Shown: positions 44,647 to 55,494, numbered from the stretch's first letter. The stretch: 64,000 nt of DNA from Acidobacteriota bacterium (GCA_965263035.1 OZ253580.1:928001-992000), one strand, 5' to 3'. A program made the numbers and translations. Notes: generated by a model not told the origin, from the sequence alone.

Positions 44647-45000
44647 GCTTCTGTCCCAGATGCGGAACACTGAACTTGGGGAAAGGCAGTTATCGAGCGG
44701 TTGGTGACTCGTGAGAGCATTGACCGCTTGCCGCCGGTAGAGAGAGTTATGCTCAAACCCTCTTCAATTTGTGTGGCAATCCTTGTCGCCGTATCCCTGG
44801 TGTGGGCAGGGTCGCGAGATAAGGCCGTTCTCTTCGTGAATGAAATCATGACCGCCAGTGCCTTTACCAATGGGGCAATGGATGAAGATGGAGATTTTCA
44901 AGGCTGGATCGAACTCTACAACGGCGGAGAGAGTGCGATCGACCTGACTGGCTATTACCTTTCCAATGGGGATTATATCCCAAAGTCACAATTCGACCGG

Positions 45001-45180
45001 TCATTCGGTCTTGAACTTGAAGGGCCGAAGGAATGCCTTGCGGGCCTGTTGGAGAGACGATCCAGGCATATCAACCTCTTCCCTCAGTTCTTTGCGATTC
45101 GGTTGGTAGGACCGCTTGGGAAGGCGTATTGTGGCGGGTTTCTGTATCGTGTGGGCGGATCTTTGTTGACGGCGCTTCAT
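45001..45180 (-). CDS. 59-aa 'SYQP' passenger protein (absent from ORF track)
   Basis: MKRRQQRSAHTIQKPATIRLPKRSYQPNRKELREEVDMPGSSLQQARKAFLRPFKFKTE*; homologous to 47926-48141 and 48234-48416. Confidence 0.75.
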   Translation of the reverse strand: MKRRQQRSAHTIQKPATIRLPKRSYQPNRKELREEVDMPGSSLQQARKAFLRPFKFKTE

Positions 45181-45186
45181 GGGAGA

Positions 45187-45411
45187 TCAGTCTCGCTCTT
45201 TTGCAGCCAAGGGCATTCCCCGCGAGAACCTGGGACCCCGTGTGGACACTATTCGATCCTTCCTGGGGAGGACACGTTCCTCCAGGTTTATGGCCGCCTT
45301 GGTATTCACGAAGTGGTGGTCCCGGCTGAACCTGCACGCAAAAATCTCATCACGCATCTCTTGGATCGGTTCAGGGACTCTGTTCTCGGCAGCAAGGGAT
45401 GATCTCGACAG
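45187..45411 (-). CDS. Small hypothetical passenger ORF of element A
   Basis: Strong RBS AAAGGAGG followed by an in-frame CTG; ends 6 nt before the SYQP ORF; no recognisable family. Confidence 0.3.
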   Translation of the reverse strand: MSRSSLAAENRVPEPIQEMRDEIFACRFSRDHHFVNTKAAINLEERVLPRKDRIVSTRGPRFSRGMPLAAKERD

Positions 45412-45519
45412 GGTTCCTCCTTTCAGATCCAATCCAATCTGAGTAGAGGAACCGAGAGACTTTGGCGGGTGGCTCGGTTCCTAACCTGATCTCAGTCTTA
45501 CCGATCCGGCTTTTTCAAG

Positions 45520-46497
45520 TCAACCCACTGCTGGTCTGGCTCCACTGTCCAGTCCGTTGTCTGCAATAAGTTCCGGGTACTTGATGCGCTTGCCGATCAT
45601 CCCGACAGCGACCATTCCCATCTGGTCTTCCGTGTCCGCTTCGCGGATGTTGTGACGGCCCGAGAATTCATTGACGTATTGGTGTAGGTGCTTGGGGCTC
45701 AGCTTGTGGAAGGTGCCCATGTGCGCCCTTTTCAGCATGGACCAAAAGCTCTCCACGCCATTGGTGTGAGCCTTGCCCCGGACGTATTCGCCAACTGAAT
45801 GCCGCACGGTTTCGTGGTTCGGGAGAGCGTGGTAAGTCAGGGCATCGTCCGTGTAGATCTTGGCGCCGGGTTCCATCTGCTCCATGATGAAGCGGCTCAT
45901 GGTTTCGCTCTTGACATTGGGGACAACTCTGGCAGAAACCTGCTTCGTGGGTCGGTCTTTGATGCCCGCCACAGCCGTCTTTCCCACAGATCCTCGACCT
46001 GTCAATTGCTTCCTCTTGGCCTTTGGCATGTTCTTCCGCTTACCGCCCCTATAGGTCTCATCAGCCTCTACCGGACCTTGAAACGTCCCGGTGCCGATCT
46101 CCGCGGCCTTGCGGAGCCGAGCCAGCATGAACCAAGCGGCTTTCTGGCCGATGCCCAGCTCTCGGTGCAGCTTCATGGAAGAAATGCCCTTGATGTTGGT
46201 GGTGAAGAGATAGCTGCCTACGGCCCAGACGCGATAAGGGAGCTTGGTGCTTTCCATGACCGTTCCCTTGCGGATGGAGAACATAGGCCGCTTTGGACAG
46301 TCCCGGCAACGGTGGGTCATGGTCTTGTGCTTGATGCCACTTTGGACGTTGAATGATCCGCAGTTGGGGCAGAACGGACCATCCGGCCAAACCTGCTCTT
46401 CCAGCCACTTTAAGGCCGCTTCGTCGTCCCGGAACTTGTCCGCAACTTGCAGCAGAGTGAGTCCTTTTCGGTGGGCTTTCCCAGGCGCTTTCTTCAT
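45520..46497 (-). CDS. IS1595-family transposase
   Basis: Zn ribbon CPNCG...CRDC; VEADETY, IYTDD, HTNGVESFWSMLKR. Confidence 0.95.
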   Translation of the reverse strand: MKKAPGKAHRKGLTLLQVADKFRDDEAALKWLEEQVWPDGPFCPNCGSFNVQSGIKHKTMTHRCRDCPKRPMFSIRKGTVMESTKLPYRVWAVGSYLFTTNIKGISSMKLHRELGIGQKAAWFMLARLRKAAEIGTGTFQGPVEADETYRGGKRKNMPKAKRKQLTGRGSVGKTAVAGIKDRPTKQVSARVVPNVKSETMSRFIMEQMEPGAKIYTDDALTYHALPNHETVRHSVGEYVRGKAHTNGVESFWSMLKRAHMGTFHKLSPKHLHQYVNEFSGRHNIREADTEDQMGMVAVGMIGKRIKYPELIADNGLDSGARPAVG

Positions 46498-46852
46498 CCC
46501 GTTTCCCTCTCTCATTGTGACTAAATAGTAACACGGAGGGGTGACAGAATCAAGCGTTTACGGAAGGAAATTGTGACTTTGGGATATAATCCCCTTTCCA
46601 ATGATCCTCAACAGCCCAGGAGGTGGAGATTCCCGGACGGCCGCGTTTCTCCTCAGGAGTTTCTGATGGTCTGGACGTCCGCCAAGAACAAGGTCGGAGC
46701 AAACGGAGAGCTGCACACCAATTTTCAACTGTCGGGTGCGGAGCCGGTTCTTCTCACCGCCCCTGACGGAAACACATTGATCGACTCGCTCCAGGCCCCG
46801 TCAGAAATCGACCGGGACGAATCCTACGGAAGACATCCTGACGGGCACGAGG

Positions 46853-47674
46853 ATCTACTGTCCCTACTGCGGGGCCACCAATGTCCAGATTGGATGCAAG
46901 CATAAGACGATGCCGTTTCGTTGCCGTGAGAAGGAATGCGGAAAGCATTTCAGCATCAAGACCGGGACCTTCATGCAGTCAAGCAAGATCGGCTATCAGA
47001 ACTGGCTCTACGCCTTCTACCTGTTCGCCACGAATCTGAAGAGTGTTTCCAGCATGAAGCTCCACCGCGAGCTGGGCATCACGCAGAAGTCAGCCTGGCA
47101 CCTGGCACACCGGATTCGCCAGGCCTGGAACTTGGACCCGGAGGAGAGATTTTGGGGTCCGGTCGAGGTGGATGAGACTTGGTTTGGTGGCAAGCGGAAG
47201 AACATGCCGAAGAAGAAGCGGTCTCAGTTGAAGGGGCGCGGCCCGGTTGGGAATACCGCTGTCGTGGGCGTGAAAGACCGGAAGACCAACCGCGTGTCGG
47301 CTCAGGTTGTCGAGGACACGACCCAGGAGACACTCCAGGGATTCGTCCAGGATCGGATCGACCCGGACGCGGCGGTCTACACGGACGATTCCTCCTCCAA
47401 TGCATCGCTGGACAATCATGAGTCCGTCCGTCATTCCCAGTTGGAATACGTTCGGGGTTCGGTTCACACCAACGGCGTTGAGTCCTTCTGGTCGATGTTG
47501 AAACGGGCGTATATGGGCACCTTCCACCGGCTGTCAGAGCGTCATCTTCACCGCTACGTCGGCGAGTTCGCAGGACGCCACAATATGCGGGAACTGGGAA
47601 CGCTGGCTCAGATGTCTCTGGTCGCTGATCGGGCCATTGGGCAGCGGCTCCGGTACCAGGATTTGGTCAGTTGA
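46853..47674 (+). pseudogene. IS1595-family transposase, 5'-truncated
   Basis: IYCPYCGATNVQIGCKHKTMPFRCREKEC, VEVDETW, VYTDD, HTNGVESFW; N-terminal helix missing. Confidence 0.85.
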
Positions 47675-47684
47675 ACCGGACTGA

Positions 47685-47936
47685 GGTGGCGGATTCCAGT
47701 GCCATCACATTCGTCTCGATAGACGAAATGACTACCTTCTCGGTCTTGGCATCAGGCCGAGTGAAATCCTGTTCAACGTCTGGACCAAGGTCGAGGTCTC
47801 AGAGCAACAAGCCGGGCGTCTTGTGAGGATGGCGGAAGGACGATCCGTTACCTTCAAGCTCACGAAGCGACCTGAGCAAATGCATCCGATCGAAGACCTT
47901 CCCCGCTGGGCAATAGGGCTGGAAAATGAGCAATAG
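47685..47936 (+). pseudogene. Start-less C-terminal remnant of a putative PD-(D/E)XK restriction-endonuclease-like cargo gene
   Basis: Reads GGGFQCHHIRLDRRNDYLLGLGIRPSEILFNVWTKVEV...LVRMAEG...FKLTK; resembles the FQFNHIR..YD.LLCLGI.P segment recalled from type II REase-like proteins. Confidence 0.4.
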
Positions 47937-48141
47937 GAAGTCCACAGTTCGCAAGAATCCGAAATCCAGAACCGTAGAACTGGTCCATTCTTCTTACCAG
48001 CCGACGAAGGCGGAGAAGGAAGAGGAGTTCAATTTGAAGGTGCCGGGAGAGACCCCATTAGATCGAATGGGCAAGCTGGCGCGGGCAGTCCTCCGTCCCG
48101 TCAAACCCCGGTGGATCAGAAAGCCCAGGAACCGTCGTTAA
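47926..48141 (+). CDS. 71-aa 'SYQP' passenger protein
   Basis: TVELVHSSYQPTKAEKEEE...LARAVLRPV...WI.KPRNRR; stops ~10 bp before the TIR. Confidence 0.75.
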   Translation: MSNRKSTVRKNPKSRTVELVHSSYQPTKAEKEEEFNLKVPGETPLDRMGKLARAVLRPVKPRWIRKPRNRR

Positions 48142-48233
48142 TGCTTGCGTTTCGGGACTTTCGTATATAATCCCCAATAGAAGGGCACTACAAGGAAATG
48201 GGGATTATATACGAAAGTGCCGAAACCTGAGCA

Positions 48234-48416
48234 TTAACGCCGGTTCCGTGGCCGGTCTATCCATCTGATATTCACGGGCTGGACCAATGCACGGGCCAGC
48301 TCCTCGAAGTCTGCTTCCACGCGCATATCCTGTTCCAGTTCGGCCTTGGTCGGTTGGTAGGAATCCTTGACCAGTTCGATGGTGGGATGTTGGGGATTGT
48401 GTCTGGGTTTCTTCAT
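48234..48416 (-). CDS. 60-aa 'SYQP' passenger protein
   Basis: TIELVKDSYQPTKAELEQD...LARALVQPV...WIDRPRNRR; ATGA overlap with the reconstructed upstream cargo gene. Confidence 0.75.
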   Translation of the reverse strand: MKKPRHNPQHPTIELVKDSYQPTKAELEQDMRVEADFEELARALVQPVNIRWIDRPRNRR

Positions 48417-48435
48417 GCGGCCCTCGGCATCCTAG

Positions 48436-50200
48436 CCCGGATATCTCATCAGAAAGATTGATAAAGGCCGCGTTTTCTGCTATAAGTGTTGTGTAATCAA
48501 TAACTTACAAAGCAGAAGGGACGCGACCTTATGACCGCAGAGTGTACCAGAATAAAGCTCAGATTTCAGGGCCTGGACGGACGGGATGTCGTGGGCCGGT
48601 TCGACGGCGGCGAGATCACCTCCGACGCCGGTGGCGTGCTCCTGCGCGAAGTGGAGCAGCGGACCCGGATTCTGGGTCGTCTGAGCGAATGCTTCACCGA
48701 CTATCGAGACTCGGATCGAGTCGAACACCCGGTGGAGGCGTTGATCAAACAGCGGGTGCTGGGGCTGTGCCTGGGCTACGAGGACCTCAACGACCACGAC
48801 GAGTTGTGCCGGGACCGGCTCTTGGCGCTGTTGTGTGATCGAGATGATCTGACGGGGGAGTTCCGGCGCGTGGAGTCGGATCGAGGCAAGCCGCTGGCAG
48901 GCAAGAGCACCCTGAACCGACTGGAGCGGACTCCGTTGGAGGGACCGGAGGGCGCGTACAAGAAGATCGTGGCCGACCCGGCGGGGATGGACGAGCTGCT
49001 GCTGGAGGTGTTTGTGGAAGCGCATCCGGAGCCCCCGGAGGAGGTGATCCTGGATGTAGACGCCACGGACGATCCGCTGCATGGGAAGCAGGAGGGACGG
49101 TTCTTCCACGGCTATTACAAACGCTACTGCTACCTGCCGCTGTACGTCTTCTGTGGGGAACACCTGTTGCGTGCGCGGCTGCGCACGGCGGATCGAGGCG
49201 CGGCCCACGGGGTGGTGGCGGAGTTGGAACCAATCGTGAGGCGGCTGCGTGAAGCGTGGCCCCAGGTGCGGATCACGGTTCGAGGGGACAGTGCCTTCTC
49301 CAACGACGAGTTGATGGTCTGGTGCGAGAAGGAAGGGATCGATTACGTCCTGGGGTTGGCGCAGAACGATCGGCTGAAGCGGAGGATCGCGACCCGGATG
49401 GAGACCGTCCGGCAGTTGCAGCGGGCGATCGGGAAGGCCGTGAGGCAGTTCCAGGAACTGCGCTATCAGACGCACAAGAGTTGGTCGTGCGAGCGCCGGG
49501 TGGTGGCGAAGGTGGAGCACCTGCCCCGGGGAAAGAACCCGCGATTCATCGTGACTTCGGTCCCGGTCCAGGAATGCGATGGGCGAAGATTGTACGAGGA
49601 GGTCTACTGCGCGCGGGGAGACATGGAGAATCGGATAAAGGAACAGCAGATGGGTCTGTTTGCGGACCGCACGTCGACCCGGAAGCTGGCGGGGAATCAA
49701 CTGCGGTTGTATTTCTCGGCATTCGCCTACGTGATGATGGAGACGTTGCGACGGGTGGGGCTGGCGGGGACGAAGCTGGCGCGGGCGCAGAGCTGGACCC
49801 TGCGGGTGAGATTGCTGAAGATCGGGGCACAGGTCCGGATCACCAGCCGCAAGGTCTGGTTGTCCTTTTCCGAGAGCTATCCGTATGCGGCGCTGTTGAG
49901 GACGGCTCTGACGCAAGTGCAAGCCCTCCCGCTTCGCTGTTAGCAACGGATGGAAAGAACTCTTTGGACGATGGCGACTTGGGAGTCCCCAGGATGGACT
50001 GCGCCCCGGAGTGGGCACCGGGTCGAGAGTCGTCGCTCAGAAGCGCAGGATGGGCGTCAAAAGGCTCTGGAGAAGCGCTGCATCTGGCCGTTGGTCGGCA
50101 CGTTCGAGCACGAAAACTGCCTCTTGAACTCGTATGGATAAAGAATCACCCAGACGACGGTTCAACTTCCGTTTATTGTTCTACTGATGAGAAATGCAGG
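48436..50200 (+). mobile_element. IS1380-family element, copy 1 (intact)
   Basis: TIR CCCGGATATCTCATCAG / CCTGCATTTCTCATCAG; CTAG TSD at 48432-48435 and 50201-50204. Confidence 0.93.
48531..49943 (+). CDS. IS1380-family transposase
   Basis: FDGGEITSDAGG, LDVDATDDPLHGKQEG, VRGDSAF, YCARGDMENRIKE. Confidence 0.95.
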   Translation: MTAECTRIKLRFQGLDGRDVVGRFDGGEITSDAGGVLLREVEQRTRILGRLSECFTDYRDSDRVEHPVEALIKQRVLGLCLGYEDLNDHDELCRDRLLALLCDRDDLTGEFRRVESDRGKPLAGKSTLNRLERTPLEGPEGAYKKIVADPAGMDELLLEVFVEAHPEPPEEVILDVDATDDPLHGKQEGRFFHGYYKRYCYLPLYVFCGEHLLRARLRTADRGAAHGVVAELEPIVRRLREAWPQVRITVRGDSAFSNDELMVWCEKEGIDYVLGLAQNDRLKRRIATRMETVRQLQRAIGKAVRQFQELRYQTHKSWSCERRVVAKVEHLPRGKNPRFIVTSVPVQECDGRRLYEEVYCARGDMENRIKEQQMGLFADRTSTRKLAGNQLRLYFSAFAYVMMETLRRVGLAGTKLARAQSWTLRVRLLKIGAQVRITSRKVWLSFSESYPYAALLRTALTQVQALPLRC

Positions 50201-50687
50201 CTAGGTTGCTTCCCCTCAAAGTAGTCTTCCGGCGTGTAGATTTGAATCTTGGGCAGGTCCATGAAGCGTCCGGCGTTGACGGCGGCATTTCTCATGCCGT
50301 TGGTCACTCTGTCTCGAAAGCAGGTGAAGATGCCGAGATCAGCTCCGGCCTGTTGACGTGCGCCGTTGAAGGCTTGGACGTGTCCGGGATTGGTAGAGCC
50401 GCCTTTGACCTGAGAAACGATGTCAATGAACCGGCCCTTGCGGATCGGGAGCCGTCCCACGCCGTCAATTCCGCCATCCCGTCTCTGGATTCGGTTCGGC
50501 TCCATACCGTCCACCAGAGCAGCAGCCCACCTCTCAAACCGGAATTTATCGATGCCGGCAAGCTCCTGAGCGTGTGTGATGGTATGGGGAAGGCCAATGT
50601 ATTGGGTGTGTTCCCAACGGATTCATCCGGGACATCCTCCCGCATGACTTCAAGGTGGTCTCCAAAGATCAGTCGATTTTCGTTCAA
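50201..50687 (-). pseudogene. Internally deleted DNA methyltransferase - Mrr-like endonuclease fusion (cargo of element C)
   Basis: MTase N-terminus NRLIFGDHLEVMREDVPDESV, then in another frame DKFRFERWAA...DGGIDG...VSQVKGG...GIF...PKIQIYT; 3' end cut by IS1380. Confidence 0.75.
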
Positions 50688-51634
50688 CCCACCAAATCCT
50701 TGTAACGCAGCCGCTTTCCCACCATCCGGTCAGCGACCAGGGCCATTTGATCCAACGTGTCCATGCGCCTTAGGTTGTGACGTGCGGCAAACTCTCCAAC
50801 GTATCGGTCGGTGTGCTGTTCCGAGAAGTGGTGAAAGGTTCCGTGGTAACTCCGCTTCAACATGGACCAGAATGATTCGGCTCCGTTGGTGTGGCAGTTG
50901 CCTTTGACGTACTCCTGAAGAGAATGTCTGACCGTCTCGTGATGGACAAGCCGGCCGTAAGAGGTTGAATCGTCCGTGTAGATCTTGGCATCTTCTCCCA
51001 CGTGCTCCAAGACGAAACGGGAGAGGGTTTCAGACTTGGTGTCAGGGACGACTCGGGCCGACACTTGGTTGGAGGGGCGATCTTTGACGGCAGCCACGGC
51101 CGTCTTTCCAACGGCTCCACGTCCCTCCAGTTTGGCGCGTTTGGCCTTCGGCATATGCTTCCGCTTTCCGCCGAGATACGCCTCGTCAGCCTCGACCGGG
51201 CCGGAGAACAGGGCCATTCCAGTCAGGTTCAGACCTTTCCGTATCCGGTGAGCAAGGTGCCAAGCCGTCTTCTGTGTTACGTCCAGGTCACGATGCAGCT
51301 TCATGGAGGAAACGCTCTTGAGGCTGGTAGTAAGGAGGTAGGTCGCAAGCAACCAAGTCTGATAGCCGAGTTTGGAGGACTGCATAACCGTCCCGACCCG
51401 GACGCTGAACCGCTTGCCGCAATCGCGGCAACGATACGGCATGGAAGGATGCTTGGCTCCGGTCTGGACGTTGGTGGAGCCGCAATGGACGCAACAGACT
51501 TCCTCCGGCCACCGCTGCTTTATGAACCATTCCTCAGCGGCTTTATCGTCGGGAAATCTCTTGAAGAATCCGCGAAGTGAAAGTCCCTCTCGGAACGCCT
51601 TGCCGGGTGCCTTGTTCCGTGTCTCGTAACTCAT
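50684..51634 (-). CDS. IS1595-family transposase
   Basis: CVHCG...CRDC, VEADEAY, IYTDD, HTNGAESFWSMLKR; RBS AGGAGG. Confidence 0.95.
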   Translation of the reverse strand: MSYETRNKAPGKAFREGLSLRGFFKRFPDDKAAEEWFIKQRWPEEVCCVHCGSTNVQTGAKHPSMPYRCRDCGKRFSVRVGTVMQSSKLGYQTWLLATYLLTTSLKSVSSMKLHRDLDVTQKTAWHLAHRIRKGLNLTGMALFSGPVEADEAYLGGKRKHMPKAKRAKLEGRGAVGKTAVAAVKDRPSNQVSARVVPDTKSETLSRFVLEHVGEDAKIYTDDSTSYGRLVHHETVRHSLQEYVKGNCHTNGAESFWSMLKRSYHGTFHHFSEQHTDRYVGEFAARHNLRRMDTLDQMALVADRMVGKRLRYKDLVG

Positions 51635-52149
51635 TGCATCCTCCTGACTTACAAGACATATTCTATAGGAAAGTACCGGCATTATCAACCCCTACGGGCA
51701 ACTTTTTCGGCACTTTCGTATATAATCCCCAAGGAAATCCTAGCACCATTAGCACGCAGAAAGGACGAGGATAGCTGAGCAAGTTGACGAGATTCGGCGA
51801 TAATTCTTCAGCCAGCCGCAACGGCCCTCGCGAGCCCAGCCTATTGGCGGCGGTTATCCCGGGTCGACAAACCAGAATTCCGAGAGTTCTCACGCTGAAG
51901 CTGACGGCTACTTCAAATATGGAGGGCCAGTGCACCACGCCGCGGTCAGCTCCCAGAAATCTCCTCGCCTCTTCAGCCCGATATTTTGTCCCTGAGTGCC
52001 GCCGTATTTCGCGGTAACTCCCTCGTATCTGGCTCCTATCTGGCTGGTGTCTTTTTCTCTGTCCAAGACATTAACATTCGATGAATCAGCAACCTGAGTG
52101 CAGGCTCTGCGGAACGAATCTTCCAAATTTTGACCCAGCGCAGGCATAT

Positions 52150-53655: not shown

Positions 53656-53836
53656 GATTTCCTCCCGTTCGAGAAGTCCAAGGATGAATCTTACAGCAGA
53701 GATCCAACCGGGAACAGGGCTATGGCCAGCGACACGGCTAGCCCGGATATCTCAACAGAAAGATTGATAAAGGCCGCGTATTCTGCTATAAGTGTTGTGG
53801 TATCAATAACTTACAAAGCAGAAGGGACGCGACCTT

Positions 53837-55250
53837 ATGACCGCAGAGTGTACCAGAACAAAGCTCAGATTTCAGGGCCTGGACGGACGGGACGTCGTGG
53901 GCCGGTTCGACGGCGGCGAGATCACCTCCGACGCCGGTGGCGTGCTCTTGCGTGAAGTGGAGCAGCGGACCCGGATTCTGGGTCGGCTGAGCGAATGCTT
54001 CACCGATCATCGGGATCCGGATCGGATCGAACACTCCGTCGTGGCGTTGATCAAACAGCGGGTGCTGGGGCTGTGCCTGGGCTACGAGGATCTCAACGAC
54101 CACGACGAGTTGTGCCGGGACCGGCTCCTGGCGCTACTGTGCGACCGGGACGACCTGACGGGGGAGTTCCGGCGCGTGGAGTCGGATCGAGGCAAACCGC
54201 TGGCAGGCAAGAGCACCCTGAACCGACTGGAGCGGACCCCGTTGGAGGGACCGGAGGGCGCGTACAAGAAGATCGTGGCCGACCCGGCGAGGATGGACGA
54301 GCTGCTGCTGGAGGTGTTTGTGGAAGCGCATCCGGAGCCCCCGGAGGAGGTGATCCTGGATGTAGACGCCACGGACGATCCGCTGCATGGGAAGCAGGAG
54401 GGACGGTTCTTCCACGGCTATTACAAACGCTACTGCTACCTGCCGCTGTACGTCTTCTGTGGGGAACATCTGTTGTGTGCGCGGCTGCGCACGGCGGATC
54501 GAGGCGCGGCCCACGGGGTGGTGGCGGAGTTGGAACCGATCGTGAGGCGGCTGCGTGAAGCGTGGCCCCAGGTCCGGATCACGGTTCGAGGGGACAGTGC
54601 CTTCTCCAACGACGAGTTGATGGTCTGGTGCGAGAAGGAAGGGATCGATTACGTCCTGGGGTTGGCGCAGAACGATCGGCTGAAGCGGAGGATCGCGACC
54701 CGGATGGAGACCGTCCGGAAGTTGCAGCAGGCGATGGGCAAGGCCGTGAGGCAGTTCCAGGAACTGCGCTATCAGACGCACAAGAGTTGGTCCTGCGAGC
54801 GCCGGGTGGTGGCGAAGGTGGAGCACCTGCCCCGGGGAAAGAACCCGCGGTTCATCGTGACTTCGGTGCCGGTCCAGGAATGCGAAGGGCGAAGATTGTA
54901 CGAGGAGGTCTACTGCGCGCGGGGAGAGCATGGAGAATCGGATAAAGGAACAGCAGATGGGTCTGTTTGCGGACCGCACGTCGACCCGGAAGCTGGCGGG
55001 GAATCAACTGCGGTTGTATTTCTCGGCATTCGCCTACGTGATGATGGAGACGTTGCGACGGGTGGGGCTGGCGGGGACGAAGCTGGCGCGGGCGCAGAGC
55101 TGGACCCTGCGGGTGAGATTGCTGAAGATCGGGGCACAGGTCCGGATCACCAGCCGCAAGGTCTGGTTGTCCTTTTCCGAGAGCTATCCGTATGCGGCGC
55201 TGTTGAGGACGGCTCTGACGCAAGTGCAAGCCCTCCCGCTTCGCTGTTAG
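53837..55250 (+). pseudogene. IS1380 transposase with +1 frameshift
   Basis: GGGGAGAGCATGGAG versus GGGGAGACATGGAG in copy 1 (~54928); otherwise near-identical to 48531-49943. Confidence 0.9.
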
Positions 55251-55494
55251 CAACGGATGGAAAGAACTCTTTGGACGATGGCGACTTGGGAGTCCCCAGG
55301 ATGGACTGCGCCCCGGAGTGGGCACCGGGTCGAGAGTCGTCGCTCAGAAGCGCAGGATGGGCGTCAAAAGGCTCTGGAGAAGCGCTGCATCTGGCCGTTG
55401 GTCGGCACGTTCGAGCACGAAAACTGCCTCTTGAACTCGTATGGATAAAGAATCACCCAGACGACGGTTCAACTTCCGTTTATTGTTCTACTGA

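Follow-up and report, generated by a model that had tools for sequence, protein, structure and literature searches.

A small conserved second gene in a lineage of IS1595 elements encodes a protein predicted to bind the DNA-binding region of the element's own transposase

Introduction

Insertion sequences of the IS1595 family encode a DDE_Tnp_IS1595 transposase with an N-terminal zinc ribbon, have short terminal inverted repeats (TIRs), generate 8-bp target duplications, and can carry passenger genes (PMC11891212, PMC3129680), and the ISNwi1-type members are reportedly "transporter IS" (tIS) with such genes between the transposase and the far end (Siguier, Gagnevin & Chandler 2009). Small element-encoded products that act on the DNA-binding function of a transposase include InsA of IS1, which is regarded as a relative of IS1595 (title of the 2009 paper, in the reference lists of PMC3129680 and PMC11891212), and the Tn5 inhibitor protein. 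In multi-gene families, including IS66 (TnpB), IS21 (IstB) and Tn7 (TniQ/TnsC), a second, element-specific protein is inherited with a DDE transposase and presumed to work with it. DNA methyltransferases also move, as mobile restriction-modification (R-M) or orphan methyltransferase units.

Here, we analyzed a window of 64,000 nucleotides from an Acidobacteriota bacterium (GCA_965263035.1 OZ253580.1:928001-992000), for which the original prediction was that three IS1595 elements (A, B, and C) with divergent transposases and different middle cargo each end with a co-oriented, basic 59-71 aa "SYQP" ORF that stays intact where the cargo has decayed, and that this protein, not recognized as a described family, is a core second component of the IS lineage flanking an exchangeable cargo slot. 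We found that the observed arrangement is real, with corrections to the extents of B and C, and that the proposed interpretation of SYQP as a second component of the element is supported, although its function is predicted only.

Results

Three IS1595 elements in the window each carry a SYQP ORF

All three ORFs are present and align with S, Y, Q, and P invariant (Table 1). The stop codons lie 7-8 bp from the inner edge of the distal inverted repeat, and A and C are flanked by perfect 8-bp target duplications. All three transposases hit DDE_Tnp_IS1595 at E 1e-36 to 1e-37 and, by tblastn against the transposase of C, those of A and B are 58% and 64% identical, respectively. Two extents differ from the original prediction. 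B does not begin right after A but is 5'-truncated, and a full copy lies elsewhere in the genome. C is long only because an unrelated 1.77-kb IS sits inside it, 16-20 bp upstream of the SYQP start and with a CTAG duplication, while seven uninterrupted copies of C of about 1.76 kb each exist in the genome. Moreover, the cargo of C is a decayed methyltransferase-Mrr_cat gene.

Table 1. Coordinates of the features of elements A, B, and C, counted from the first nucleotide of the window. L-numbers denote loci examined outside this genome; A' denotes a copy of A, and D a further element, in the same genome.
Position	Strand	Feature	Basis
44960-44967		Target-site duplication of A (TTTCCAAT), left copy	Read directly; identical to 46595-46602
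44968-46594	-	Element A, complete IS1595-family element (ISNwi1-type ends) of 1627 bp, inserted in a gene	TIR of 29 nt, 44965-44993 / 46569-46597, 97% complementary; 8-bp duplication; interrupted ORF reads on across the element (44701.. and 46573..)
45001-45180	-	SYQP-A, 59 aa, divergent "A-type" member of the family	Profile hit E 1.7e-13; 76%-identical copy at genome 2908887-2909036; stop 7 bp from the TIR
45187-45432	-	81-aa ORF in the slot of A	Pfam gave 0 families; not conserved in the A' copy at DNA level
45520-46515	-	Transposase of A, 331 aa	DDE_Tnp_IS1595 3.6e-37; Zn_ribbon_IS1595 9.6e-09
46595-46602		Target-site duplication of A (TTTCCAAT), right copy	Identical to the left copy
46868-48175	+	Element B (start approximate), lacks the left end and the first ~60 codons of the transposase	96.5% identical over 1309 bp to a full copy at genome 4568192-4569723 with both TIRs; an inverted-repeat pair starts at 46868
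46910-47674	+	Truncated transposase of B, 254-aa ORF	DDE_Tnp_IS1595 1.8e-36; no Zn-ribbon hit
47926-48141	+	SYQP-B, 71 aa, with the "VPGET..R" insertion seen in a subset of the family	Profile E 1.8e-23; alignments; stop 8 bp before the TIR
48150-48175		Distal TIR of B	Repeat search (right end 48150-48177) and sequence
48192-48199		Target-site duplication of C (AAGGAAAT), left copy	Identical to 51731-51738
48200-51730	-	Element C, native length ~1.76 kb, carrying a nested foreign IS	TIR 48199-48225 / 51705-51731, 27 of 27; seven uninterrupted copies at 99.1-99.7% identity
48234-48416	-	SYQP-C, 60 aa, identical in all 8 genome copies	GAGG 5-9 nt upstream of the ATG; in intact copies the ATG overlaps the stop of the upstream Mrr_cat ORF (L002, 1501 vs 1502-1504)
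48436-50200	+	Nested unrelated IS (transposase 48531-49943, DDE_Tnp_1_4), flanked by CTAG at 48432-48435 and 50201-50204	Pfam 2.6e-148; 15 further near-full-length copies plus 2 of ~1.5 kb in the genome; junction arithmetic
50206-50514	-	Cargo remnant, Mrr_cat / NA-iREase1 nuclease-like domain ORF, 3' end cut off by the nested IS in this copy	Pfam NA-iREase1 1.2e-07, Mrr_cat 9.5e-05; intact 110-aa form in L002 1172-1504
50304-50687	-	Cargo remnant, out-of-frame N-terminal stub resembling the start of an N6_N4 DNA methyltransferase	By eye resembles the N-terminus of the intact 563-aa methylase-Mrr_cat cargo of L048; Pfam gave 0 families; D keeps a clearer "DLIYLDPPFNSN" stub
50684-51634	-	Transposase of C, 316 aa from the ATG, 334 aa from an upstream TTG at 51688	DDE_Tnp_IS1595 1.5e-37; Zn ribbon 1.6e-05; AF2 model pLDDT 78.6 with a three-helix bundle at 91-135; integrase-like DDE fold
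51705-51730		Transposase-proximal TIR of C	Repeat search and sequence
51731-51738		Target-site duplication of C (AAGGAAAT), right copy	Identical to the left copy

SYQP is a conserved protein family under purifying selection

To test whether SYQP is a genuine gene, we built a profile of the family, which found 14 ORFs at E<=1.9e-12 among 93,513 six-frame ORFs of the genome with the next best at E 0.077; all 14 lie in IS1595 elements, excluding chance. Of 18 IS1595-like transposase places in the genome, 14 carry SYQP (leaving out one spurious row at E 0.27). A wider profile search found 737 clusters at E<=1e-3 and 122 at E<=1e-10, of which the 150 best listed are 45-155 aa long. A dN/dS ratio near 1 had been named in advance as an outcome that would count against a coding function; instead, mean pS was 0.72 against a mean pN of 0.40 over 666 pairs, and in the 260 of these pairs that were usable, the median dN/dS was 0.37 and all 260 were below 1, with the four closest pairs at 0.17-0.28. 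Indels are whole codons, although frameshifted SYQP copies exist in databases (sequences P0008, P0009, and P0027). AlphaFold2 (AF2) gives a confident beta-alpha-alpha-beta fold with a pLDDT of 87.1. A match to an already characterized family, likewise specified beforehand as a refutation, was not found in Pfam, NCBIfam, PADLOC, PHROGs, PDB sequences, Foldseek, or VIA, and we found no description of the protein in print, although an unnamed "ORF2" annotation in the founding IS1595 paper or in ISfinder, which the search did not cover, is not excluded.

The multi-copy families keep the central SYQP match open with no internal stop, as is the case for all 8 C copies, 10 of 10 copies in two relatives, 20 of 20 in a Bryobacterales genome, and 7 of 7 L087-type copies, while L029 and L091 have an upstream stop that shortens the N-terminal tail. 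SYQP is kept where the cargo is decayed (C, D, and L072) or absent (L087 and L092). There is also a weak hint of expression: contigs from 4 metatranscriptomic runs of 2 studies cover the C element including SYQP, and one 1074-nt contig bridges the transposase 3' half, the cargo remnant, and SYQP; these are contigs only, without strand information, and DNA carry-over is possible.

SYQP is linked to IS1595 transposases across phyla

The original prediction would have failed had homologs been mostly unlinked to IS1595. To examine this, we searched 185,579 species genomes; 235 of 398 pattern matches were confirmed by tblastn, and the best 80 were examined. Of these 80 loci, 67 (27 of 39 distinct protein clusters) have a co-oriented IS1595 transposase within 6 kb upstream, and 68 (28 of 39 clusters) have a TATAATCCCC-like end (<=2 mismatches) 30-64 bp after the stop, whereas by our arithmetic about 3 of 80 would be expected by chance. 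Of the 13 loci without an upstream transposase, five have under 2.9 kb of upstream sequence, and four with a full 6 kb (L027, L042, L064, and L068) have neither a transposase nor a recognizable end. Hosts span Acidobacteriota, Alpha- and Gammaproteobacteria, Dehalococcoidia, Binatia, and Opitutaceae, and the gene is patchy and multi-copy, being present in 11 of 301 genomes sampled in its own phylum.

The gene is not universal in the subgroup; elements E and F of the same genome lack it. E sits inside the SYQP-bearing radiation on the transposase tree (95/98 support with L053, on a long branch) and its ends match the GGGGATTATA/TATAATCCCC motif only with two mismatches each, so the transposase lineage can persist, at least for a while, without SYQP. 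F has a different small basic ORF in the same place, with only a weak profile hit (E 0.8).

The divergence of SYQP tracks that of the transposase: the Mantel correlation of pairwise identities across 21 elements was r 0.46, and 0 of 5000 permutations reached it. This test does not correct for shared ancestry of whole elements; it shows co-inheritance and not co-adaptation. In L026 and L066, A-type SYQP copies sit beside A-type transposases.

The slot between transposase and SYQP mostly holds DNA methyltransferase or R-M genes

The suggested exchangeable cargo slot is borne out and can be sharpened. In 11 of 16 element clusters with a gap of 1 kb or more between transposase and SYQP, a DNA methyltransferase or R-M gene lies directly upstream of SYQP. 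These belong to several unrelated types, i.e. N6_N4_Mtase with Mrr_cat or HNH, N6_Mtase with a specificity domain, and a methylase plus an XcyI-like nuclease, while A', L062, and L077 have non-methylase cargo. SYQP often overlaps or abuts the stop of the cargo. A few read-through fusions with PF01555 methylases exist, but two of the three are frameshift read-throughs.

SYQP is predicted to bind the N-terminal region of the transposase

Co-folding with the transposase, a check proposed at the outset, gave ipSAE scores of 0.86, 0.84, and 0.86 against a best score of 0.01 among three controls, with at least 83% of contacts agreeing between runs and a partner pLDDT of at least 78. In the calibration of the method, 58 of 80 solved complexes and 2 of 110 mismatched pairs reached the pass mark; these counts hold only roughly here because our own alignments were used. 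The complex is the output of one predictor on one cognate pair and was not repeated with a second method or a second pair. Our searches turned up no solved IS1595 transposase complex, so that a pass based on a memorized structure is unlikely. The interface covers SYQP residues 11-50 and transposase residues 18, 37, 40-41, 49-50, 78-86, and 94-138, which in the AF2 model of the transposase are the helix before the zinc ribbon, the strand after it, and helices 91-103, 110-117, and 121-135 of the helix-turn-helix (HTH) region. The transposase interface residues (W94, T103, S110, Q121, W125, R130, R132, and others) are invariant in the SYQP-linked set, but by eye they also look conserved in element E, which has no SYQP, and so they are not SYQP-specific.

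Discussion

We conclude that SYQP is a genuine, conserved small protein encoded at the distal end of one lineage of IS1595-family elements with GGGGATTATA-type ends and 8-bp duplications, and that it is the second core gene of the element. The gene order is inverted repeat, transposase, optional cargo (most often a DNA methyltransferase or R-M module), SYQP, and inverted repeat, with all genes co-oriented and SYQP often translationally coupled to the gene before it. Our working hypothesis, in which we have moderate confidence, is that SYQP, which folds as strand, short helix, helix, strand with basic tails at both ends, works by binding its own transposase: its second helix and last strand would pack against the N-terminal DNA-binding module, comprising the pre-ribbon helix, the post-ribbon strand, and the three-helix HTH bundle at residues 91-135, and thereby modulate recognition of the ends of the element. 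We lean towards a positive role as a small accessory subunit whose Arg/Lys-rich tails would add contacts to the AT-rich ATTATATA core of the repeat. While the ORF, its position, the family size, purifying selection, linkage to the IS, and co-divergence with the transposase are documented here, the fold and the complex are predictions, and the effect on transposition and the role of the tails are inferences on which no experiment bears.

A copy-number-limiting inhibitor that keeps the transposase off the ends by sitting on the same HTH/zinc-ribbon module, as IS1 InsA or the Tn5 inhibitor do by other means, is less likely but not excluded. The same predicted complex fits this possibility, its interface includes the C-terminal half of the third helix of the HTH bundle (residues 121-138), the SYQP core is acidic with 10 Asp/Glu in 60 residues, and SYQP is expressed from the same operon, downstream of the transposase. 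However, the lowest-error contacts are hydrophobic packing on the first helix (94-104) and strand pairing with 78-86 rather than a cover over the presumed DNA-reading face; also, loss of an inhibitor would give hyperactive copies, yet every copy in the most expanded families keeps the central SYQP reading frame open. No data on direction exist either way.

It is doubtful that SYQP belongs to the cargo, for example as a controller, an anti-restriction factor, or a modulator of methylation captured together with the methyltransferase or R-M genes. The frequent methyltransferase or R-M neighbors, the overlapping stops, and the few fusions would fit this idea, but the methyltransferases belong to unrelated families while SYQP stays the same, SYQP is kept in cargo-less elements (the 7 L087-type copies and L092) and with non-methylase cargo, its divergence tracks the transposase, and it is predicted to bind the transposase. 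Similarly improbable is that SYQP acts on the inverted repeat or the flanking target on its own, for example by bending the end or choosing the target, without stable binding to the transposase; the Arg/Lys-rich tails, the position next to the AT-rich repeat, and the small size without a catalytic motif are compatible with this, but the co-fold passes strongly and the fold has no match to any DNA-binding fold, which is weak evidence because small models rarely match. Finally, although the ORF ends where transposase-binding DNA might extend and B and C share 75% identity over 103 nt at this end, an incidental frame through conserved subterminal DNA is very unlikely given that synonymous sites are near saturation while the protein is conserved, the codon-sized indels, the confident fold, and the same protein pattern in 737 clusters.

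In comparison with described systems, the elements agree with the ISNwi1-type IS1595 elements in transposase, duplications, repeats, and extra genes, although assignment to this group rests only on its end consensus (ggnnatTAT) and was not checked against ISfinder. The literature examined treats the extra genes as passengers unrelated to transposition, whereas here one small gene is constant at the far end across phyla while the gene(s) between change. InsA and the Tn5 inhibitor are pieces of the transposase reading frame itself, while SYQP is a separate gene at the opposite end, has no similarity to the transposase, and is predicted to bind it rather than compete for DNA. Compared with IS66 TnpB, IS21 IstB, and Tn7 TniQ/TnsC, to which there is no sequence or fold relation and no Pfam hit, SYQP is far smaller (about 60 aa), has no ATPase motif, and is separated from the transposase by a cargo slot; the parallel with these helper proteins was not tested. 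With regard to mobile R-M or orphan methyltransferase units, we did not find the present arrangement described in our searches; here, the vehicle is a single simple IS with a fixed two-gene frame, and several unrelated methyltransferase types, some with nuclease domains or partners, occupy the same slot.

Elements A, B, and C are IS1595-family insertion sequences

To test whether the three elements belong to the IS1595 family, we compared their transposases, ends, and target sites with the features of that family. The transposases of A, B, and C all matched the ISXO2-like DDE domain (DDE_Tnp_IS1595, PF12762) with E-values of 3.6e-37, 1.8e-36, and 1.5e-37, respectively, and the AlphaFold2 model of the C transposase matches the retroviral-integrase/DDE fold. 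The N-terminal zinc ribbon (PF12760) was found in A (9.6e-09) and C (1.6e-05) but is absent from B because B is 5'-truncated: it ends with the same kind of repeat as the others but has lost its left end, and a full copy, 96.5% identical and with both repeats, lies elsewhere in the genome. The A and B transposases are 58% and 64% identical to that of C. A and C have short terminal inverted repeats and perfect 8-bp target-site duplications, while the duplication could not be examined for B in the absence of its left end. The ends read GGGGATTATA, which fits the ISNwi1 end consensus ggnnatTAT; the ISNwi1-group label rests on this consensus, as the ends were not compared with ISfinder sequences.

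The 3.5-kb length of C is secondary because an unrelated IS with a 470-aa DDE_Tnp_1_4/DDE_Tnp_1 transposase sits inside it, and the genome holds seven uninterrupted C copies of about 1.76 kb. The nested 1.77-kb IS is present in 15 further near-full-length copies at 97–100% identity and 2 of ~1.5 kb at 96%. The copy in C is flanked by CTAG on both sides, which suggests a CTAG target. Element A is inserted in a gene whose reading frame continues on the far side of the element ('...LTGYYLSNGDY' / '...NDPQQPRRWRFPDGRVSPQEF...') and is then cut off by the truncated element B. By eye, this gene, which was not scanned for domains, looks like a lamin-tail-domain protein.

Coordinates of the insertion sequences in the window and of related loci (L numbers designate individual loci)
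Feature	Sequence	Coordinates	Description
Pile-up of insertion sequences	window	44960-51738	
Gene interrupted by element A	window	44701-44967 and 46595-46870	
Element A	window	44968-46594	29-nt inverted repeats, 97% complementary; between two perfect copies of TTTCCAAT
Element B	window	ends at 48175	homology to other copies begins near 46868
Element C	window	48200-51730	27 of 27 matching repeats; AAGGAAAT duplication
Nested unrelated IS in C	window	about 48436-50200	between two CTAG copies
Transposase of the nested IS	window	48531-49943	DDE_Tnp_1_4, Pfam 2.6e-148
Further occurrence of the nested IS type	window	about 53738-55494	
Element E (L097)	genome	48771-50023	IS1595 transposase of 344 aa, imperfect ends, no SYQP
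Element F (L096)	genome	54343-55686	same type of ends, frameshifted transposase, different 52-aa basic ORF
A' copy (L095)	genome	2908884-2912576	A-type SYQP and A-type transposase
Deletion derivative	L074	5326-6162	truncated transposase fused in frame to SYQP
Deletion derivative	L072	5917-6303	methylase stub fused in frame to SYQP
SYQP-like N-terminus in a longer protein	L079	5953-7038	361-aa protein with a P63C domain

The distal ORFs belong to a family under purifying selection without a match in the libraries searched

Each of the three elements ends, exactly where originally predicted, with a co-oriented ORF of 59, 71, or 60 aa that stops 7–8 bp from the inner edge of the distal repeat, and the three products align with S-Y-Q-P invariant (hereafter SYQP). 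The observation underlying the original prediction therefore holds. In intact C copies (locus L002), the ATG of the ORF overlaps the stop of the preceding ORF as ATGA, the usual sign of translational coupling, whereas in the copy in the window the nested IS has split the two.

A match to an already characterized family had been named in advance as an outcome that would speak against a new component, and we therefore searched for SYQP in several libraries. No significant match was obtained in Pfam (best E 0.11), NCBIfam (best E 0.054), PADLOC (none), PHROGs (best E 0.051), or PDB sequences (best E 0.36). Foldseek gave no match at E<=1e-3 and VIA none at Z>=2 against 48,161 chains, although for a 60-residue model the lack of a fold match says little. 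Neighbors in the ESM Atlas are all 'hypothetical protein'. A word-indexed search returned 30 small homologs, none of which carried a source name or a Pfam domain. By contrast, a profile search of 1.84 billion representatives gave 737 clusters at E<=1e-3 and 122 at <=1e-10, and the 150 best listed are all 45–155 aa. A tblastn search of 72,556 plasmids with an alphaproteobacterial SYQP found no match at E<=1e-3, which for a 56-aa query is weak evidence of absence.

A dN/dS ratio near 1 would have indicated that only subterminal DNA is conserved; this was examined using 37 sequences forming 666 pairs. Synonymous sites are near saturation (mean pS 0.72), while non-synonymous change is about half that (pN 0.40). 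Of the 260 pairs with 0.1<dS<2, all have dN/dS below 1, with a median of 0.37 and values of 0.17–0.28 for the four closest pairs, and length changes are whole codons. AlphaFold2 on a 110-row alignment gave a model with a pLDDT of 87 consisting of strand 12–16, helix 24–28, helix 37–45, and strand 49–53, with basic tails at both ends.

A search for longer or fused forms gave 15 proteins, of which six were inspected. Two methylase 'fusions' are frameshift read-throughs, one methylase fusion may be real, one A-type SYQP is fused to an upstream protein of no Pfam family, and two are N-terminal SYQP fused to unrelated tails; thus, no consistent fusion partner emerged. At locus L079, a SYQP-like N-terminus runs on without a stop into a protein with a P63C domain (E 4.9e-21) and no IS end follows, while the protein P0191 shows the reverse, i.e., an A-type SYQP at the C-terminus of a 384-aa protein with no Pfam hit.

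SYQP is linked to IS1595 elements within and outside the genome

Because homologs that were mostly unlinked to IS1595 would have contradicted the original prediction, we next determined the genomic context of SYQP. Among 93,513 six-frame ORFs of the genome, the profile finds 14 (E<=1.9e-12; next best 0.077), all of which are in IS1595 elements, i.e., C eight times, B twice, element D twice, A, and A'. Four other IS1595-like places lack SYQP: elements E and F, a 38%-identical element, and a fragment. Element E lies next to what look like tRNA genes, judged from ORF translations typical of T-arm sequence and not from a tRNA finder. In element F, the stop of the 52-aa basic ORF ('..IIKLDATPEEVARRMF..') is 33 bp from the outer end, the same place as SYQP; because the SYQP profile hits it only at E 0.8, we treat it as a positional analog, and it may be a remote relative or an independent analog. 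In the A' copy, SYQP and the transposase, which is 80% identical, are separated by 2.4 kb holding three opposite-strand ORFs, one a HIRAN-domain protein (E 4.3e-08). No inverted repeats were found for this copy, so that it may be a rearranged, immobile remnant, and we do not claim that the insert is mobile cargo.

Outside this genome, a pattern scan of one genome per species yielded 398 matches, of which 235 were confirmed, and the 80 loci kept were examined. Of these, 67 of 80 (27 of 39 clusters at about 90% identity) have a co-oriented IS1595 transposase within 6 kb upstream, and 68 of 80 (28 of 39 clusters) have a TATAATCCCC-like end 30–64 bp beyond the stop, compared to an estimated 3 of 80 by chance. 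Among the 13 loci without a transposase, five have under 2.9 kb of sequence upstream, and four with a full 6 kb lack both transposase and end and may be orphans. Twenty of the 80 loci (L028–L047) represent one SYQP-bearing element in a single Bryobacterales genome, and 19 of these 20 SYQP reading frames are identical, indicating a recent burst.

The hosts span at least five phyla. Within its own phylum, the gene is patchy and multi-copy (11 of 301 genomes, 7 of 185 genera), as a mobile gene should be. Pairwise identities of SYQP and the adjacent transposase are correlated (Mantel r 0.46; 0 of 5000 permutations; 21 elements), which shows that the two are inherited together, though shared ancestry is not corrected for. 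On the transposase tree, most deep forks are unresolved (10 of 20 inner branches open), and we draw no order of cargo gains or losses from it.

The slot between transposase and SYQP mostly holds methylation or restriction genes

The distance from transposase to SYQP runs from under 100 bp (L092; 194 bp in the L087 type) to 3.3 kb. Sixteen clusters have a gap of 1 kb or more, and eleven of them carry DNA methyltransferase or R-M genes of several unrelated kinds: N6_N4_Mtase fused to Mrr_cat/NA-iREase1 (L048, L053) or to HNH (L054, L083), N6_Mtase with or without a specificity domain (L056, L060, L069, L082), a methylase plus an XcyI-like nuclease (L025), and plain methylases (L051, L084). Two gave no family (L062, L077) and three were not scanned (L055, L058, L066). 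The elements in the window and its genome fit this picture: C keeps a 110-aa Mrr_cat/NA-iREase1 ORF and an out-of-frame N-terminal stub, and D keeps a 'DLIYLDPPFNSN' methylase stub. The deletion derivatives in L074 and L072, the latter with the stub 'TSPPCNLGK', are natural examples of cargo loss that spares SYQP. Thus, the variable cargo proposed originally is real, and most of it is methylation or restriction genes, decayed in A–D.

Contigs from four metatranscriptomic runs of two studies cover the C element end to end or nearly so, and one 1074-nt contig bridges the transposase 3' half, the cargo remnant, and SYQP. Because these contigs lack strand information and DNA carry-over cannot be excluded, they provide only a hint of expression; neither the parts of the element without cover in one run (X18) nor the depth figures are informative, and Rfam and promoter scans were not included. 

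SYQP is predicted to bind the DNA-binding head of its transposase

Co-folding with the transposase had been proposed from the outset as a check. A co-fold of the C transposase (316 aa, 23-row alignment) with SYQP (110 rows) scored 0.86, 0.84, and 0.86, while the controls, two unrelated partners and one unrelated 316-aa chain, scored 0.01, 0.00, and 0.00. The runs share at least 83% of contacts, and partner pLDDT is at least 78. In the calibration of the method, 58 of 80 solved complexes and 2 of 110 mismatched pairs reach its pass mark, but these counts hold only roughly here because our own alignments were used. As an independent check, we considered a natural fusion (L074:5326-6159) in which a deletion joins a truncated transposase in frame to SYQP; however, two MAFFT alignments misplaced the SYQP rows or the transposase C-termini and the fusion was not folded.

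The predicted interface takes in transposase residues 18, 37, 40–41, 49–50, 78–86, and 94–138. In the AlphaFold2 model of the transposase (pLDDT 78.6, above 90 over residues 20–130), these are the helix before the zinc ribbon, the strand after it, and a three-helix bundle at 91–103, 110–117, and 121–135, which we read as the HTH. The best-defined contacts are SYQP F37, L40, and A41 against residues 94–102, and strand 46–48 against residues 81–82. SYQP L44 and V48 and transposase T98, Y99, and T102 are also among the predicted contact residues. The contacted residues also look conserved in element E, which has no SYQP, and are therefore general features of the head and not a SYQP-specific patch.

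Discussion

The interpretation that the small ORF is a second component of this IS lineage flanking an exchangeable slot is supported. What the analysis documents is a new, widespread, selected small-protein family that forms the fixed far end of an IS1595 lineage, whereas the binding of SYQP to the transposase is predicted and its effect on transposition is inferred. Our working hypothesis is that SYQP is a small subunit that completes or covers the DNA-binding head of its transposase. We lean to a positive role, with the Arg/Lys tails reaching the AT-rich core of the repeat, because every copy in the most expanded families keeps the central SYQP frame open. This is an inference, and an inhibitor binding the same module is a live alternative. 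The possibility that only subterminal DNA is conserved can be set aside.

We also considered a further-reaching scenario, which we regard as possible but somewhat less likely than not. In this scenario, the IS1595 lineage would have a two-protein transposition machine in which a 60-residue subunit docks on the zinc-ribbon/HTH head and is needed to recognize the ends, and the space between the two genes would have become a general-purpose slot through which unrelated DNA methyltransferases and R-M modules are picked up and spread between phyla. SYQP would then be the first obligate small subunit in the IS1595/IS1/Merlin superfamily, and the element a dedicated IS vehicle for epigenetic and defense genes.

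A conserved, selected second gene that is predicted to bind the transposase would change how the IS1595 family is annotated, because ORFs of about 60 aa are usually dropped, and how its mechanism is studied. It offers a small, testable handle on end recognition in a transposase superfamily that reaches into eukaryotes (Merlin) and for which we found no solved structure. The predominance of DNA methyltransferase and R-M genes among the large cargos in the fixed slot points to a simple, cross-phylum route for spreading methylation and defense genes in uncultured bacteria, and a SYQP profile would be a sharp marker for finding the distal ends of such elements in metagenomes.

IS1595 elements are treated as one-gene elements that sometimes carry passengers, and it is established that members of the family carry passenger genes ('transporter IS'; PMC3129680 and PMC11891212, both citing Siguier et al. 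2009). The elements described here fit the transporter IS in that genes unrelated to transposition lie inside the inverted repeats, as a methylase/Mrr_cat remnant in C and as intact methyltransferase or R-M genes in relatives. Literature searches, which did not extend to Siguier et al. 2009 itself, to supplements, or to entries in ISfinder and TnPedia that may bear on novelty, found no description of a conserved distal small gene or of a transposase partner in this family. We also compared SYQP with ribbon-helix-helix and other antitoxin-like small DNA binders, in which an N-terminal strand is followed by two helices that form a dimeric RHH. The SYQP model is strand, short helix, helix, strand and had no fold match; because small models often give none and dimerization was not tested, this comparison argues neither for nor against such a relationship. 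The IS1 InsA-type regulators are products of the 5' part of the transposase frame with zinc finger and HTH. SYQP does not fit this type: it has no Cys/His motif and no Pfam hit, and it is a separate ORF at the far end of the element.
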